Assembly (NCBI GenBank): GCA_964644925.1 | Contig: CAZXYJ010000001.1 | Span: 1-25,891 of the forward strand | Reading direction: 5' to 3' | Source of the DNA: an uncultured Halobacteria archaeon | GTDB lineage: Archaea > Halobacteriota > Syntropharchaeia > Alkanophagales > Methanospirareceae | DNA length: 25,891 nt | In this document: positions 2,961 through 12,955 of the stretch, in pieces | Layout: each line of letters starts with the position of its first letter | How positions within the stretch are numbered: the first letter of the stretch is position 1 | Notes under the pieces: model-generated | What the model was told of the DNA's origin: nothing | Database searches by the model: none | What the model saw: the letters and a program-made list of their open reading frames with translations, nothing else | Position numbers and translations under genes: made by a program

Positions 2961-3407
2961 ATGAAACAATATAATTTTGTCCCTATTGAATTGAAAGATG
3001 CCAACCGTTTCATAGCGCAGTTTCACCGGCATAACAAACCTGTTGTCAGAGCAAAGTTTCAGGTGGGGCTTATGAAGGACAAAGAACTAATCGGTGTTGG
3101 AGTTGTCGGCAGGCCCATTGCCAGAATGTTATCTAATGGTAAAACCGTTGAAGTGCTGAGAACGTGCATCAAAGAAGGCTACCCAAATGCGTGTTCAATG
3201 ATGTATGCACGGCTGAAGCGAATCTCAGAATTACTGGGTTATGAGAAAGTTATAACATACACCCTCCAGAAGGAAAGCCAGAGCAGCCTAAAAGCGTTAG
3301 GAGCTTCCATCGTTGCAGAGGTTAAACCACAGGATTGGAATAGGAAGAATCGGCGTAGAGCGGCACAGCCCGTGTACAAAGAGCCAAAATACAGATGGGA
3401 ATTATAA
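2961..3407 (+). CDS. Conserved phage protein, XF1762-like (possible GNAT/Mom-like fold)
   Basis: ANRFIAQFHRH, VGRPIAR, EVLRTC, NACSMMY, ITYTLQKES motifs recalled from this phage family. Confidence 0.6.
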   Translation: MKQYNFVPIELKDANRFIAQFHRHNKPVVRAKFQVGLMKDKELIGVGVVGRPIARMLSNGKTVEVLRTCIKEGYPNACSMMYARLKRISELLGYEKVITYTLQKESQSSLKALGASIVAEVKPQDWNRKNRRRAAQPVYKEPKYRWEL

Positions 3408-3411
3408 CACA

Positions 3412-3702
3412 TTGAAATCCTTCACCGACCGCGTAAAACGTAACCAGGAAAAGCAGGGGTTATATGTATTTAAAGTGCCAAAAAGCGTTGACCCGCAGAT
3501 ACGAGAACCCATTGATTTAATCTGCATGAATACACATGGCAAAGTAACATTTATCAGGGCGAGGGGAAACGGTCACGGCAATCTTAACGGGGTAACTACA
3601 TTACGACTGAAACAACTCGGTAAACAGTGCGGTGCTAAGGTATTGCATTCAAAAGAAAACGGTGCCGGTGAGATTGTATTTTTCAGGATATACGAGAGAT
3701 GA
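3412..3702 (+). CDS. Hypothetical protein, weak similarity to Hjc/PD-(D/E)xK nucleases; start uncertain (TTG 3412 proposed)
   Basis: PIDLICMNTHGKVTFIRAR resembles the DLIA...IEVK motif but lacks E and K; stop overlaps next ATG. Confidence 0.4.
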   Translation: MKSFTDRVKRNQEKQGLYVFKVPKSVDPQIREPIDLICMNTHGKVTFIRARGNGHGNLNGVTTLRLKQLGKQCGAKVLHSKENGAGEIVFFRIYER

Positions 3703-3935
3703 ATAAAAAGAGACGAAAGAGGAGAAGACGTATCAGATTCACAGAGGAAGTCCCAGATGCAGAATGCCTTATATGTCCCTTCTCTTGCTGCTCTCACCCC
3801 TTCCAAGAACTATTTGACGAATCTTATCTAACCACATACGCCAAACTGTGCATCAAAGACCTTACCCCGCACGACCGCCGTAAAGTTCTTGCAAGAATCG
3901 AAAATCAAGGTTGTGTTAAAAATGCCAAGATTTAG
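3699..3935 (+). CDS. Small basic Cys-containing hypothetical protein
   Basis: ATGA overlap with upstream gene; CxxCxxxCC cluster. Confidence 0.6.
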   Translation: MNKKRRKRRRRIRFTEEVPDAECLICPFSCCSHPFQELFDESYLTTYAKLCIKDLTPHDRRKVLARIENQGCVKNAKI

Positions 3936-3958
3936 ACTACCCTAACCAAACACAAAAA

Positions 3959-3975
3959 CCGAAACCTTTATATAC
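3959..3975 (+). promoter_or_regulatory. Archaeal promoter (BRE + TATA)
   Basis: CCGAAA followed by CC-TTTATATA-C (3967-3974), upstream of ORF 4013. Confidence 0.7.
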
Positions 3976-4012
3976 CCTTTCCGCTAATATACTATTATAG
4001 GAAAAAACTAAA

Positions 4013-4222
4013 ATGGGAAAAACCGAAAAGAAGGGAGAAGAAGGGCAAGAAGAAGAATACTTTGACCTATCAATAAAAATATCGGGTGAACCACTCAGAC
4101 AACTTATGGCAATAAGAGCGGATAAGGAAAAGAAAACAAGAAAAATAACATCAGCAACAGAAATTGTTCGGGAAGCGATAGAGCGTTGGTATAAGGAAAG
4201 TTTTGAAAAGGAGAAAAAATAA
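4013..4222 (+). CDS. Ribbon-helix-helix-like DNA-binding protein
   Basis: DLSIKIS strand followed by helices ending ATEIVREAIERWY. Confidence 0.55.
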   Translation: MGKTEKKGEEGQEEEYFDLSIKISGEPLRQLMAIRADKEKKTRKITSATEIVREAIERWYKESFEKEKK

Positions 4223-4227
4223 AGAAA

Positions 4228-4410
4228 ATGGAAATGAGAAGGCGCTTCGGGGCAACCTTCTCGGTAAAACAATTTGCCGAGCAGGTATATAAGTTTTTCG
4301 GTTTTCAGCTTAGCGGGCTGAAGACACGACTCTCGGAAATGAGAGCCAGAGAAGAGAGCTGGGGATTGGTTGTATTTGAGAGTGGGGTAGTTACGGAGGT
4401 AGCAGCATGA
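4228..4410 (+). CDS. Small hypothetical protein
   Basis: 60 aa; ATGA overlap with the next gene. Confidence 0.55.
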   Translation: MEMRRRFGATFSVKQFAEQVYKFFGFQLSGLKTRLSEMRAREESWGLVVFESGVVTEVAA

Positions 4411-4913
4411 GCGAAGAAGTCAAAGAGCAAGTTAAGTACGATTGGAAAGAGCTGAGAATAGCCGAATATGCACGACTCGAAAACGAGATAGCTATCGAAA
4501 CGCATGAATTAGTTACCGACCCAGTGAGGAACAGACTGATTAAGGAGCAGGCAATGCTGAACGCGGAGATTGAAGAGGTTGAGGCGATATACCATAAAAA
4601 CATCGAAGCAGCACAACAGCAACAGGCAGGCATAAAGTTAGAGCTTGCAGAAACCTGGAGCGACACAGAAGATAAAACTTTTGAATGCGATGCCGGCACA
4701 GCAATACTACGCACGACAAAGTCACTGCATATCAGAAGCAAAGAAAAACTCGTGGCTTTCCTCGAGCTGAACAAAAAACTCACTGAATTTATAAAGAGCT
4801 TCGAGATAACAAAGTTGAGGAAGATAAAGGACGCGGGGATGCTGGAAGATGAGATAGCAACCTGGGACGAAAAGAAGAACGTGGCGATAAAACTTGCGGA
4901 GGCAGACCAATGA
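4407..4913 (+). CDS. Gam-like / Gp157-like host-nuclease inhibitor (tentative)
   Basis: N-terminal coiled coil, then KTFECDAGTAILRTTKSLHI, resembling the Mu Gam KT...GT...R segment. Confidence 0.5.
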   Translation: MSEEVKEQVKYDWKELRIAEYARLENEIAIETHELVTDPVRNRLIKEQAMLNAEIEEVEAIYHKNIEAAQQQQAGIKLELAETWSDTEDKTFECDAGTAILRTTKSLHIRSKEKLVAFLELNKKLTEFIKSFEITKLRKIKDAGMLEDEIATWDEKKNVAIKLAEADQ

Positions 4914-5107
4914 GAAAATGGAAAGCAGAACTATGGATGGATGATACCCCTCCAGAAGAAGACATAACACTCAAGGACGGAGGACATCTCGCACAGAAGG
5001 AAATAAACATCGCAATGGAAAAGGCAAAAGCAGCAATCGAAAAGGAATGGGACGGTCTGAAAGTAACGAATTACGATGTGTATATTGACAAGGAGGCAGC
5101 CCAATGA
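4910..5107 (+). CDS. Small hypothetical protein
   Basis: ATGA-coupled on both sides. Confidence 0.65.
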   Translation: MRKWKAELWMDDTPPEEDITLKDGGHLAQKEINIAMEKAKAAIEKEWDGLKVTNYDVYIDKEAAQ

Positions 5108-5325
5108 AAACCGAAAACATAGAGTTGAAAAGCGATCCAAAGTTGGGGCGGATTCTCGCTGAATATTGCGAAGATATAGGTGCTATACCCACCCAGGAAG
5201 GCAAGAGATTCTTCAGAGAATGGAATACAAAAGTTCCTACGAAACTTATCAGGCAGTGCATCTTCGCTGGGATTTACTGGGTGAAAAAGTATCCTGAGGA
5301 TATAACAGTCGTGGAGGGAGAATAA
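5104..5325 (+). CDS. Small hypothetical protein
   Basis: ATGA-coupled to the upstream gene; abuts the next gene. Confidence 0.65.
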   Translation: MKTENIELKSDPKLGRILAEYCEDIGAIPTQEGKRFFREWNTKVPTKLIRQCIFAGIYWVKKYPEDITVVEGE

Positions 5326-11483: not shown

Positions 11484-12347
11484 ATGAGCGTTGATACTAA
11501 AAAGAAGTTGTATGAATGTTTGGTAAAGCGACCTGCCATCATGAGTAAGAACGAGTTCGTTTACACTGCAGGGTATACAGGATATGACTTCTTCGATCTT
11601 AGTAAACTGACTCTTTCACCAAAAACCTCTGGAGATATAGTTAAAATGTATGTGGATTTGCTTGAAGAAGCTAAAAGAGAGGGTTTGGATTTCAACAAAT
11701 TAGCATTCATAGAAAGAACAATTGGTCCTATGACGATAGCTTCTCAACTTTCGTCTGAAGAGAATTTAGAAATCGTGGTTATTAGAACGAAAGTACCATG
11801 TTCCTGTAAGTTATGCGAGACGAAATTACGAGTTAAAGGTGGCATCGAACCTCCACTTTTCAAAGTGGATAAAGTGGTAATCGTAACCGATGTTGTTACC
11901 AGCGGAGGAACGGTATTGGATGCAATTAATATTATAAAGAAGGCAGGTGCAAAAGTCGTGGCAGCCATTGCTATACTTGACAGGCAAACAAAGGTCAAAG
12001 ATAAAACAGGGAAAGAGAGGATAGAAAAGCAAGGGGCGAAGCTATTTGCTTATTATACAAGAGACGAGCTATTAACATTAGGATTTGCAATGCCAAGCAA
12101 GGAGGATCTAGGGCAAAGAGACTTTCTTCTTGAGCTAAGTAAAGCAATATATCTATCAGAGGAGGAGACGGGCCTGTTTAGAAGCCTTTTCGACTCTATT
12201 GCAGAAGAGGTTTTAAGGAATAAAAAGGATGCTGAAGCTAATGAAAAGAATAAAAGAGTGATTAGAAACATGTTAACGTCTATCTTGATAAATACGAGAG
12301 TTAGCGTACTCCAGGCTGCGGAGTTGATGGAGACGAAAGAAAAATAA
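11484..12347 (+). CDS. Type I phosphoribosyltransferase (OPRT-like) with C-terminal extension
   Basis: PRPP-binding loop VVIVTDVVTSGGT followed by AGAKVVAAIAILDR; YDFFDLSKL resembles the OPRT N-terminal region. Confidence 0.8.
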   Translation: MSVDTKKKLYECLVKRPAIMSKNEFVYTAGYTGYDFFDLSKLTLSPKTSGDIVKMYVDLLEEAKREGLDFNKLAFIERTIGPMTIASQLSSEENLEIVVIRTKVPCSCKLCETKLRVKGGIEPPLFKVDKVVIVTDVVTSGGTVLDAINIIKKAGAKVVAAIAILDRQTKVKDKTGKERIEKQGAKLFAYYTRDELLTLGFAMPSKEDLGQRDFLLELSKAIYLSEEETGLFRSLFDSIAEEVLRNKKDAEANEKNKRVIRNMLTSILINTRVSVLQAAELMETKEK

Positions 12348-12592
12348 TGACCCCTCAATATGAAGTTTTTATTTGTTATGAGACTACATCGGAGTTTGAT
12401 CTCGCTGTAAATGTAAGAGAGTCCTTAAGAAAGATCGATATTAAAGCATTTGTTGCACAGATGGACATCCCTGAAGGCAAGGATTGGGTGCCCTATATCA
12501 ATGACGCCATTGAGAAATGCAAACATTTCGTAGCAATTATAAGTAATGTAGCGCTATTCTCTGAGGTATTAAAGAGAAGTTTATATACCTAA
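12347..12592 (+). pseudogene. Truncated TIR-domain protein
   Basis: YEVFICY...AFVAQMDIPEGKDW...IEKCKHFVAIIS is the N-half of a TIR domain; the ORF ends at 81 aa where the catalytic Glu is expected. Confidence 0.7.
12580..12588 (+). promoter_or_regulatory. Archaeal TATA box, candidate promoter of the structured ncRNA
   Basis: TTTATATAC about 25-30 bp upstream of the GC-rich structured region; no ORF follows. Confidence 0.55.
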
Positions 12593-12604
12593 TCCCCTAT
12601 CTTC

Positions 12605-12877
12605 TTAATGAGGAAACTCACCGGCAGTCACCGGCAACGGTGGCTCCGGTTTATGGTGCTCCGCGAACGCCAACAATGGGCGGTACTATCTGATGGGCGT
12701 TGGAATGATAGTGCGCGCTGGGTGAAACCCCCAGGCGGAGCCCCTTTATGATGCCTAAAACAAACAAAGGCGTAGATATGGAGAGGAGTAGTTCAGGTTG
12801 CGGCCGGTTGTACAGCTAACCGCAGGTTGAAGTTGGCGGGTCGCTCCCGCCCCCGCCCCTCTTCAGCAAACTTTTTT
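12605..12877 (+). ncRNA. Candidate structured non-coding RNA (~260-270 nt), family unknown
   Basis: GC-rich, several stems, GAAA and GCAA tetraloops, a TATA box upstream and T-tracts downstream. Confidence 0.55.
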
Positions 12878-12929
12878 GAAAAAGAATACTTTTTTGCTGC
12901 AAAAGGTTTTCTTTTTTAAAAAAAGAAAA
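12864..12929 (+). terminator. Oligo-T terminator / inverted-repeat region
   Basis: T6 at 12872-12877 and 12890-12895; CAGCAAA/TTTGCTG inverted repeat; near-palindrome TTTTCTTTTTT-A-AAAAAAGAAAA at 12907-12929. Confidence 0.55.
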
Positions 12930-12933
12930 AGTG

Positions 12934-12955
12934 ATTTGTAAACGTCCTTTATATA
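12934..12955 (+). promoter_or_regulatory. Portal-gene promoter with a shared 17-bp upstream motif
   Basis: ATTTGTAAACGTCCTTT is identical to 17631-17647 and runs into TTTATATA (12948-12955), 32 bp before the ATG. Confidence 0.75.

Follow-up and report, generated by a model that had tools for sequence, protein, structure and literature searches.

The window analyzed here, a stretch of 25,891 nucleotides, is a complete 25.9-kb contig (C1) of a 1.33-Mb MAG, and carries terL, portal, Mu-F-like and HK97-type capsid genes on this one contig. These genes fit an archaeal virus, in agreement with the TATA-type octamers of the window and with the initiator tRNA of the MAG, which is of the archaeal A1:U72 type. 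BLAST gives no match among the INPHARED phages. The same virus has stand-alone antitoxin-like genes (MqsA-like and HicB-like). The sequencing runs in which the sequence is found are marine-sediment and cold-seep metagenomes, with no RNA runs among them. Much of the methane that rises through marine sediments is consumed by ANME-1 archaea, and to our knowledge metagenomes are the sole source of what is known of the viruses of these archaea. The words tRNA and non-coding are absent from the main text of the main paper on the ANME-1 virome (PMC9894754).

The gap between terL and portal is a hot spot for accessory genes, with gene contents that differ from relative to relative, and in the window it contains a cassette with mapped ends. 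The left junction lies at 12578-12582, where identity with a variant carrying a full-length TIR gene stops; it is marked by a loose end in read mapping at 12577, and by BLAST identity of L032 and L034-L036 that extends to 12584. These four contigs, drawn from several samples, match the window at 99.6% identity between 11400 and about 12580, past which they encode a full-length TIR protein (212 aa), an OMP decarboxylase, and an HNH protein. The TIR ORF of the window, and likewise that of its identical copies L031, L033, and L037, retains only Pfam positions 1-65 of 122, and stops 10 nt inside the new sequence. On the right side, homology to L030 restarts at 12931, and the cassette ends in a copy (12904-12933) of a dispersed host palindromic motif. 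The MAG has about 40 copies of this motif spread over 37 contigs, which accounts for the huge read depth at 12903-12943. Bounded by these junctions, 12580-12930 forms a unit that brings a promoter and terminators of its own. As judged from these alignments, this mobile cassette arrived by insertion or replacement and cut the TIR gene, and it is the RNA cassette that has taken the place of the 3' half of TIR together with the OMP decarboxylase and HNH genes.

The cassette opens with an archaeal/viral TATA box, TTTATATA, at 12580-12587 on the + strand. The window contains 10 copies of the octamer where 1.5 are expected, most of them embedded in ACC-TTTATATA-C and placed 28-51 nt ahead of gene starts, as is seen for archaeal TATA boxes whose genes have short leaders or none. 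The flanks of the 12580 box are also those of the boxes ahead of portal and other genes. From this excess and this context, the box is of the usual promoter type of the virus, and the first-pass annotation, which had proposed a structured RNA with its own promoter at this place, is borne out on that point. In the related contig L040, TTTAAATA stands in place of the TATA box, at an equal distance to a common start sequence, and the start region TATCTTCTTAATGAGGAA (12597-12615, + strand) recurs there as an identical 18-mer at 369-386, 3' of the L040 TATA box. Transcription is predicted to start near 12608, as inferred from the 28-33 nt that separate TATA and ATG at other boxes. At the other end, three oligo-T tracts on the + strand (12872-12877, 12890-12895, and 12907-12917) resemble archaeal terminators as read from the sequence, and confirm the earlier observation of T6 runs 3' of the element (12872-12877, 12890-12895, and 12912-12917); oligo-T ends archaeal transcription. 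The box had also been described as having no ORF behind it, which is not strictly so, since a 47-codon ORF (12608-12751, + strand) lies over the structured RNA, but this ORF has no family, is not conserved, and is probably no gene.

The GC-rich, strongly folding segment of the + strand is 12604-12866. Its GC content is 0.52-0.54 against 0.35-0.41 upstream, in keeping with the GC-rich tract in AT-rich surroundings noted at the outset, and the + strand folds more stably than its shuffles (z = -3.2 for 12590-12900; z = -3.8 for 12604-12750), whereas the - strand has no excess stability over its shuffles (z = -1.1). The 5' part of this segment (12609-12650, + strand) forms two hairpins with GNRA loops in both MFE and centroid folds, UGAG-GAAA-CUCA at 12609-12620, and ACCGG..GUCACCG-GCAA-CGGUGGC..CCGGU, the inner stem-loop of which is at 12627-12644. 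These are followed by a cloverleaf-like module (12658-12741, + strand) identified by an architecture scan and by folding, which we call TLS-0. It has a 7-bp acceptor GCUCCGC/GCGGAGC (12658-12664 with 12735-12741), a 4-bp D-like arm, an 8-bp arm with a 16-nt loop (16-18), a 3-nt linker, and a T-like arm CUGGG-UGAAACC-CCCAG (5 bp, 7-nt loop) that abuts the acceptor 3' strand. The stems named for this part in the first-pass annotation, among them also AACGCC/GGCGTT, are all present where it had placed them. A covariance model of TLS-0 (R2) found a second copy nowhere among the genomes and contigs searched, and in L040 only the first ~25 nt of the 5' domain and one short word align with the window; the L040 domain folds, unlike that of the window, as a 145-nt hairpin (z = -5.7). 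TLS-0 and the 5' hairpins are homologue-less, and single-sequence folding is the sole basis of their predicted shapes.

Beyond TLS-0 lies an A-rich leader, UUAUGAUGCCUAAAACAAACAAAGGCGUAGAUAU (12746-12779, + strand), with a hairpin UGCCU/AGGCG, that is conserved in L030 and L178. We rejected a coding function for it, as the window and L030 differ here by two 1-nt indels, which shift the frame. The leader runs into TLS-1 (12780-12865, + strand), a tRNA-like three-helix RNA defined by covariation and by its match to the covariance models R1 and R3, which score it at 100-113 bits. TLS-1 consists of a 7-bp acceptor (12780-12786 with 12858-12864) with a discriminator A at 12865, a long arm (12792-12831) tipped by a GUAC tetraloop, and a T-like arm (12835-12839, loop GUCGCUC, 12847-12851). 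The T-like arm is the GGCGG-7 nt-CCGCC element that had been picked out among tRNA-like pieces, found at 12835-12851; the stem CGGTT/AACCG from the same list gives way to GGUY-GUAC-RGCU, the pairing preferred by covariation. The tail A-GCA (12865-12868, + strand) is conserved in all five of the family members described below, despite their variable acceptor helices. The window copy has a 6-nt tandem repeat, CCCGCC followed by CCCGCC, between the T stem and the acceptor 3' strand (12852-12857, + strand), which is missing in L030, L040, and L178; since the L030 acceptor 3' strand comes directly after the T-like stem, we regard it as a duplication in the window copy. When folded with the duplication, the window TLS-1 retains its acceptor and T-arm with a bulge between them, and the presence of the six nucleotides at this junction could signal decay of the window copy. 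The description of the element as a single ~260-nt RNA needs amending: it is structured, non-coding, promoter-driven, and terminator-bounded, but a composite of 5' hairpins and two tandem modules, of which just the 3' module, with its leader, recurs in other contigs.

Homologues of TLS-1 are present in other viral contigs. L030, a JGI contig, has the leader and TLS-1 (87% identity) directly 3' of terL and behind its own TATA box, and a covariance model seeded from L030 added three members when used for searching. L040, with a portal 72% identical to that of the window, carries two tandem family copies (TLS-1 and TLS-2), and L178 (= G103:C77, a viral contig assigned by binning to a different ANME-1 MAG), with a terL 25% identical, carries one. 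The L030 form is identical in L191-L196, representing six or more further assemblies, and runs X9 and X13 contain further TLS variants with substitutions and a 9-nt insertion after 12808. In all, the TLS-1 family comprises five distinct sequences of two subtypes, from four lineages of ANME-1 tailed viruses, and is located directly 3' of terL in 4/4 lineages and 5' of portal in the 3/3 that have portal on the contig.

Covariation among homologues, for which the first-pass annotation had suggested a test, is indeed seen. In the alignment of five sequences, which was fitted to the model and in which the TLS-2 rows are less sure in the long arm, 96% of the cells are paired, and nine pairs are changed on both sides, compared to 4.4 +/- 1.4 in shuffles and <=5 in slid controls. 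RNAalifold independently gives the identical three helices. Within the three TLS-1 copies, 10/14 variable positions fall into six pairs, every one of which stays paired, and four of these are changed on both sides, namely acceptor pairs 3:70 and 5:68, the second T-stem pair, and the long-arm tip; folded singly, the TLS-1 copies share a common shape. The single-stranded parts that are conserved are the loop GUCGCUC and the tail A-GCA (5/5 copies) and, over much of its length, the leader. G-U pairs are frequent and would turn into A-C mismatches on the opposite strand, so that the molecule under selection is the + strand RNA. The proposal of structure at the RNA level accordingly gains from the + strand folding excess, from G-U pairs that fit the + strand only, and from compensatory changes, and the tRNA-like reading of the 3' part holds in homologues with compensatory changes.

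The family is narrowly distributed. Models R1 and R3 matched only two viral contigs when run against 66 family, 79 class, and 150 phylum genomes (overlapping sets of about 215), and the family is missing from the 42.7-kb relative G106. No family RNA is present upstream of portal in L002/L029, L174-L177, L179-L184, or L197-L199, and several of the close relatives of the virus that were compared are without the cassette. Pattern scans of IMG/VR with a T-arm 28-mer, a 17-mer, and a degenerate T-arm-plus-tail pattern yielded chance matches, none of them confirmed by the models, and BLAST against 100 relatives gave only 20-22-nt chance matches in GC-rich coding regions of G068 and G071. By these sequence comparisons TLS-1 is an apparently undescribed, virus-restricted RNA family, and a candidate new Rfam family.

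Searches for known RNAs are in line with the unassigned status given to the element earlier, with no Rfam family, tRNA, or tmRNA called. Rfam models have no match in the segment at gathering thresholds, and at E <= 10 give miRNA-like matches on an AT-rich terminator hairpin. RF00005 is without a match in the segment at E <= 10, and recovers its positive control, the L040 tRNA-Met, at 61 bits. ARAGORN in default, intron, and mitochondrial modes reports no tRNA in the segment, and under relaxed settings (-ps70/80) makes a weak call of TLS-1 with an 8-nt 'anticodon' loop. A resemblance to RNase P RNA that had been remarked upon finds no backing, as the Rfam models, including the P4 core, are negative even at E <= 10, and at about 140 nt the 5' part is short. 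A tmRNA was also rejected, with ARAGORN -m empty at the 80% threshold, and the 7.3-bit alpha_tmRNA match, which is on the - strand, at the level of noise. Inspected by eye, the junction strands (AGURG, RUU, and none) lack the core motifs of hammerhead and other three-way-junction ribozymes.

Neither module is a canonical tRNA. Where an anticodon arm would have a 7-nt loop on a 5-bp stem, TLS-1 has GGUY-GUAC-RGCU with a compensatory U-A/C-G change; its T loop is GUCGCUC (5/5), its GG lies inside a helix, and the corresponding TLS-0 loop is UGAAACC. Without a 7-nt anticodon loop, a normal D arm, and a canonical T loop, TLS-0 and TLS-1 cannot decode. Nor are they intron-containing tRNAs: TLS-0 has no bulge-helix-bulge by eye and ARAGORN remains empty after in-silico deletions of 8-13 nt at every position of its big loop, and TLS-1 exceeds tRNA size by 7 nt, which is too short for an intron. 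What is shared with tRNA is a 7-bp acceptor contiguous with a 5-bp T stem and its 7-nt loop, seen in L030, both L040 copies, and TLS-0, and interrupted by an extra C in L178 and by the 6-nt duplication in the window TLS-1.

There is also a link to true tRNA genes. L040 has TLS-1, TLS-2, and tRNA-iMet within 260 nt on one strand, the tRNA lying 11 nt past the TLS copies; its A1:U72 pair and its GGG/CCC anticodon stem mark it as an initiator, and it is a near-match to that of the host. In L030, the first 12 nt of an initiator tRNA remain behind TLS-1, and in the window no true tRNA is called. The L040 gene and the L030 remnant place the family as a resident of a viral tRNA locus. In alignments with the initiator tRNA, TLS-1 scores 2.1 sd (L040) and 2.9 sd (L030) over a shuffle null, and the two share the words GGGGU.G and UCAGGUU (D-loop) and the T-stem/acceptor junction. 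This weak sequence likeness suggests that TLS-1 descended from a tRNA.

We think that 12580-12917 is best explained as a self-contained viral gene cassette for a noncoding RNA, and give this account as a whole a probability of about 0.6; that the TLS RNAs constitute a functional tRNA-like RNA family we hold to be quite probable. On this account, the virus-type TATA box would drive an inferred transcript of ~260-300 nt from near 12608 to the oligo-T tracts, made up of the two 5' hairpins followed by the tandem tRNA-shaped TLS-0 and TLS-1. Host RNase P and tRNase Z might then cut at the acceptor helices, which would free stable L-shaped RNAs of about 80-86 nt with A-GCA ends; for such predicted processing by tRNA enzymes we put the chances at roughly even. 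The released RNAs could, at a guess, act as tRNA mimics that occupy or divert a tRNA-binding factor during infection, with a nuclease of the host that targets tRNA, or an enzyme that handles it, as candidates, although we regard a decoy role as putative and rather doubtful. Several points weigh against this account, namely that there are just five sequences, that TLS-0 and the 5' hairpins are orphans, that the window copy carries the 6-nt duplication, and that the cassette is sporadic.

The locus could instead be a decaying tRNA gene cluster, in which functionless viral tRNA pseudogenes linger in the recombination hot spot between terL and portal. The missing canonical tRNA features with negative ARAGORN and Rfam searches, the truncated initiator tRNA in L030, the patchy occurrence among relatives, the duplication, and the lack of relatives of TLS-0 all suit such a history. 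It is nonetheless unlikely, because stem substitutions among the TLS-1 copies are compensatory without exception, two paralogous types keep GUCGCUC and AGCA across viruses with 25%-identical terL, the L030 form is unchanged in six or more independent assemblies, and the promoter and terminators of the cassette are intact. The fixed place between terL and portal may alternatively mean that in some archaeal tailed viruses the packaging motor has an RNA cofactor, a three-way-junction RNA on the portal/terminase motor like the phi29 pRNA. Both the constant location behind terL in four lineages (even with a terL 25% identical) and 5' of portal in three, and the junction of three helices with paired 5' and 3' ends, are suggestive of this. 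However, the RNA is missing from the majority of relatives whose terL and portal belong to the same families, so that it cannot be an essential motor part; moreover, the terL-portal gap is a general hot spot for accessory genes, the Rfam pRNA model is unmatched, the long-arm tip is variable and tolerates a 9-nt insertion, and the neighbouring initiator tRNA suggests a connection with tRNA biology. We therefore consider a packaging RNA very improbable.

Three further readings seem as remote. That the leaderless 47-codon ORF is itself the product, with the RNA folds incidental, gains some appeal from its ATG, 28 nt from the start of the TATA box as is typical of leaderless genes of this virus. 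A phmmer search of 1.84 billion representative proteins, however, returned only the ORF itself and one marginal repeat protein, a weak resemblance to a host protein of 413 aa (E of about 0.03 per genome, 79 genomes) is judged noise, the L040 counterpart reads ATG AGG AAG TGA and so ends after three codons, and the ORF spans only the non-conserved half, leaving TLS-1 unexplained; a small-protein gene is thus hardly credible. Its position at cassette junctions and the host-type palindromic motif at its right end could be taken to mean that the segment acts as DNA, being a tRNA-derived attachment or recombination site, a MITE, or a palindromic repeat, and tRNA genes are frequent integration targets. 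Against this, 12595-12870 is single-copy in the MAG, with nothing similar in the 100 relatives (BLAST) or the approximately 215 phylum genomes (covariance model), G-U pairs and compensatory changes imply selection on the + strand RNA, and no integrase adjoins. The first-pass annotation had named a match to a MITE or palindromic DNA element as grounds for abandoning its proposal; only 12904-12933, which lies outside the RNA, is dispersed, and we see very little prospect of a DNA-level explanation. Finally, the RNA could be the partner of a protein encoded outside the window, for example a Y-RNA-like partner of a Ro60-type protein. This too is highly improbable, as PF05731 (TROVE) is missing from the MAG (G000), from G103, and from the 42.7-kb relative G106 (all incomplete) under conditions in which control genomes respond, the Rfam Y RNA models are unmatched, and the ends of TLS-1 are on the acceptor side, in contrast to YrlA.

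We return, then, to the tRNA-like RNA cassette. An RNA that is tRNA-shaped, anticodon-less, confined to viruses, and encoded beside an initiator tRNA suggests interference with, or protection of, the host tRNA or translation-initiation machinery, a theme that the MqsA-like and HicB-like genes of the virus fit. More speculatively, and in our estimation improbably, the TLS RNAs might be a new class of archaeal-virus tRNA mimics, forming one unit with the viral initiator tRNA in a conflict over the host tRNA pool or translation start. Such mimics might, for instance, sequester a defence nuclease of the host that cleaves tRNA; alternatively, charging or CCA repair at the A-GCA end might let them mislead a tRNA-sensing system. 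Regardless of role, the family would offer a small, concrete RNA for work on conflicts between archaeal viruses and their hosts, and the locus provides an example of cassette exchange in the hot spot between terL and portal.

Among known systems, the phi29 pRNA resembles TLS-1 as an RNA of a tailed virus with a three-way junction and paired ends, but TLS-1 has neither a pRNA match in Rfam nor, by eye, a complementary loop pair, and is missing from most relatives. The tRNA-like domain of tmRNA similarly combines an acceptor/T-arm stack with one long helix; TLS-1 differs in lacking both a tag reading frame and pseudoknots, and we know of no tmRNA in archaea. Canonical and initiator tRNA-Met share with TLS-1 the 7-bp acceptor followed by the 5-bp T-like stem, U55, C56, and R57, and an unpaired discriminator A, whereas TLS-1 lacks a D arm, has G54 and C58 rather than U and A, and ends in GCA rather than CCA. 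Covariation-backed screening of viral metagenomes by Fremin et al. (2023) yielded 10,006 structured-RNA candidates, some of which overlap tRNA predictions and were proposed to be noncanonical tRNAs or tRNA mimics; archaeal viruses are unmentioned in the text of that study (PMC10690425), and our pattern scans of IMG/VR, the source of that set, revealed none of the TLS family. The small RNAs of T4 are co-transcribed with its tRNAs, and have tRNA-like 3' parts cut by RNase P. Like them, the TLS RNAs are viral non-tRNA RNAs sited with viral tRNA genes; a small RNA gene beside a viral tRNA, of the T4 RNAC/RNAD type, is found in L040, and in L030 next to a remnant. Two small RNAs come from the T4 tRNA region, and their role is still unsettled (PMC3014915). 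T4 is a bacterial virus and its RNAs have no sequence or Rfam relation to the TLS RNAs, which are distinguished from them by a TATA promoter of archaeal type, a complete stack of acceptor and T-arm, and the conserved A-GCA tail.

At its right end, the RNA cassette between terL and the portal gene carries a link between virus and host. The sequence at window positions 12904-12933, AGGTTTTCTTTTTTAAAAAAAGAAAAAGTG, matches a motif that is dispersed through the host metagenome-assembled genome (MAG) in ~40 copies on 37 of its 235 contigs, with the consensus TTTTTTCTTTTAGCACAGGTTTTCTTTTT-NNN-AAAAAGAAAAAGTGT and a hairpin loop that is variable. Because an ATG lies within a few bases 3' of many host copies, the motif has the appearance of a conserved module of the host, either a promoter or a leaderless start. 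The presence of this dispersed motif also accounts for the enormous metagenome depth at 12903-12943.

The accessory island at 11484-12592 has a second haplotype, found in four contigs lacking the cassette (L032, L034, L035, and L036), with the gene order PRTase (287 aa), full-length TIR (212 aa), OMP decarboxylase (235 aa), and HNH; it is thus a pyrE-like and pyrF-like pair flanking the TIR gene. The same samples contain both haplotypes.

A 47-aa ORF (12608-12748) overlaps the cassette's 5' structured RNA. Across 32 residues its product is 45-48% identical to the same region of 411-417-aa host proteins that form a single family (G017:C101, G002:C120, G022:C72, and G057:C201). With E values of ~0.03 per genome, and because the matched proteins are orthologues of each other, we judged this similarity to be noise.

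Among relatives carrying the tRNA-like module TLS-1, contig L040 has an imperfect 145-nt hairpin (376-528; region z = -5.7 on folding) that separates TLS-1 from the predicted transcript start common to L040 and the window. This hairpin neither matches Rfam nor resembles the 5' part of the window's cassette. L040 also encodes, within the head module and 3' of the portal gene, a 604-aa protein that carries a domain of the ADP-ribosyltransferase exotoxin type (3315-5129; PF03496, precomputed annotation). L178 (G103:C77), a distant viral contig that also bears a TLS module, encodes a TATA-binding-protein homologue (1995-2579; PF00352, 5.5e-14) adjoining an MT-A70/ParB_N methyltransferase. L040 has an initiator-type tRNA-Met (792-866), with A1:U72 and a GGG/CCC anticodon stem, that is very close to the host's initiator tRNA. 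In L030, no more than the first 12 nt of this tRNA remain (3187-3198), where another cassette interrupts it.
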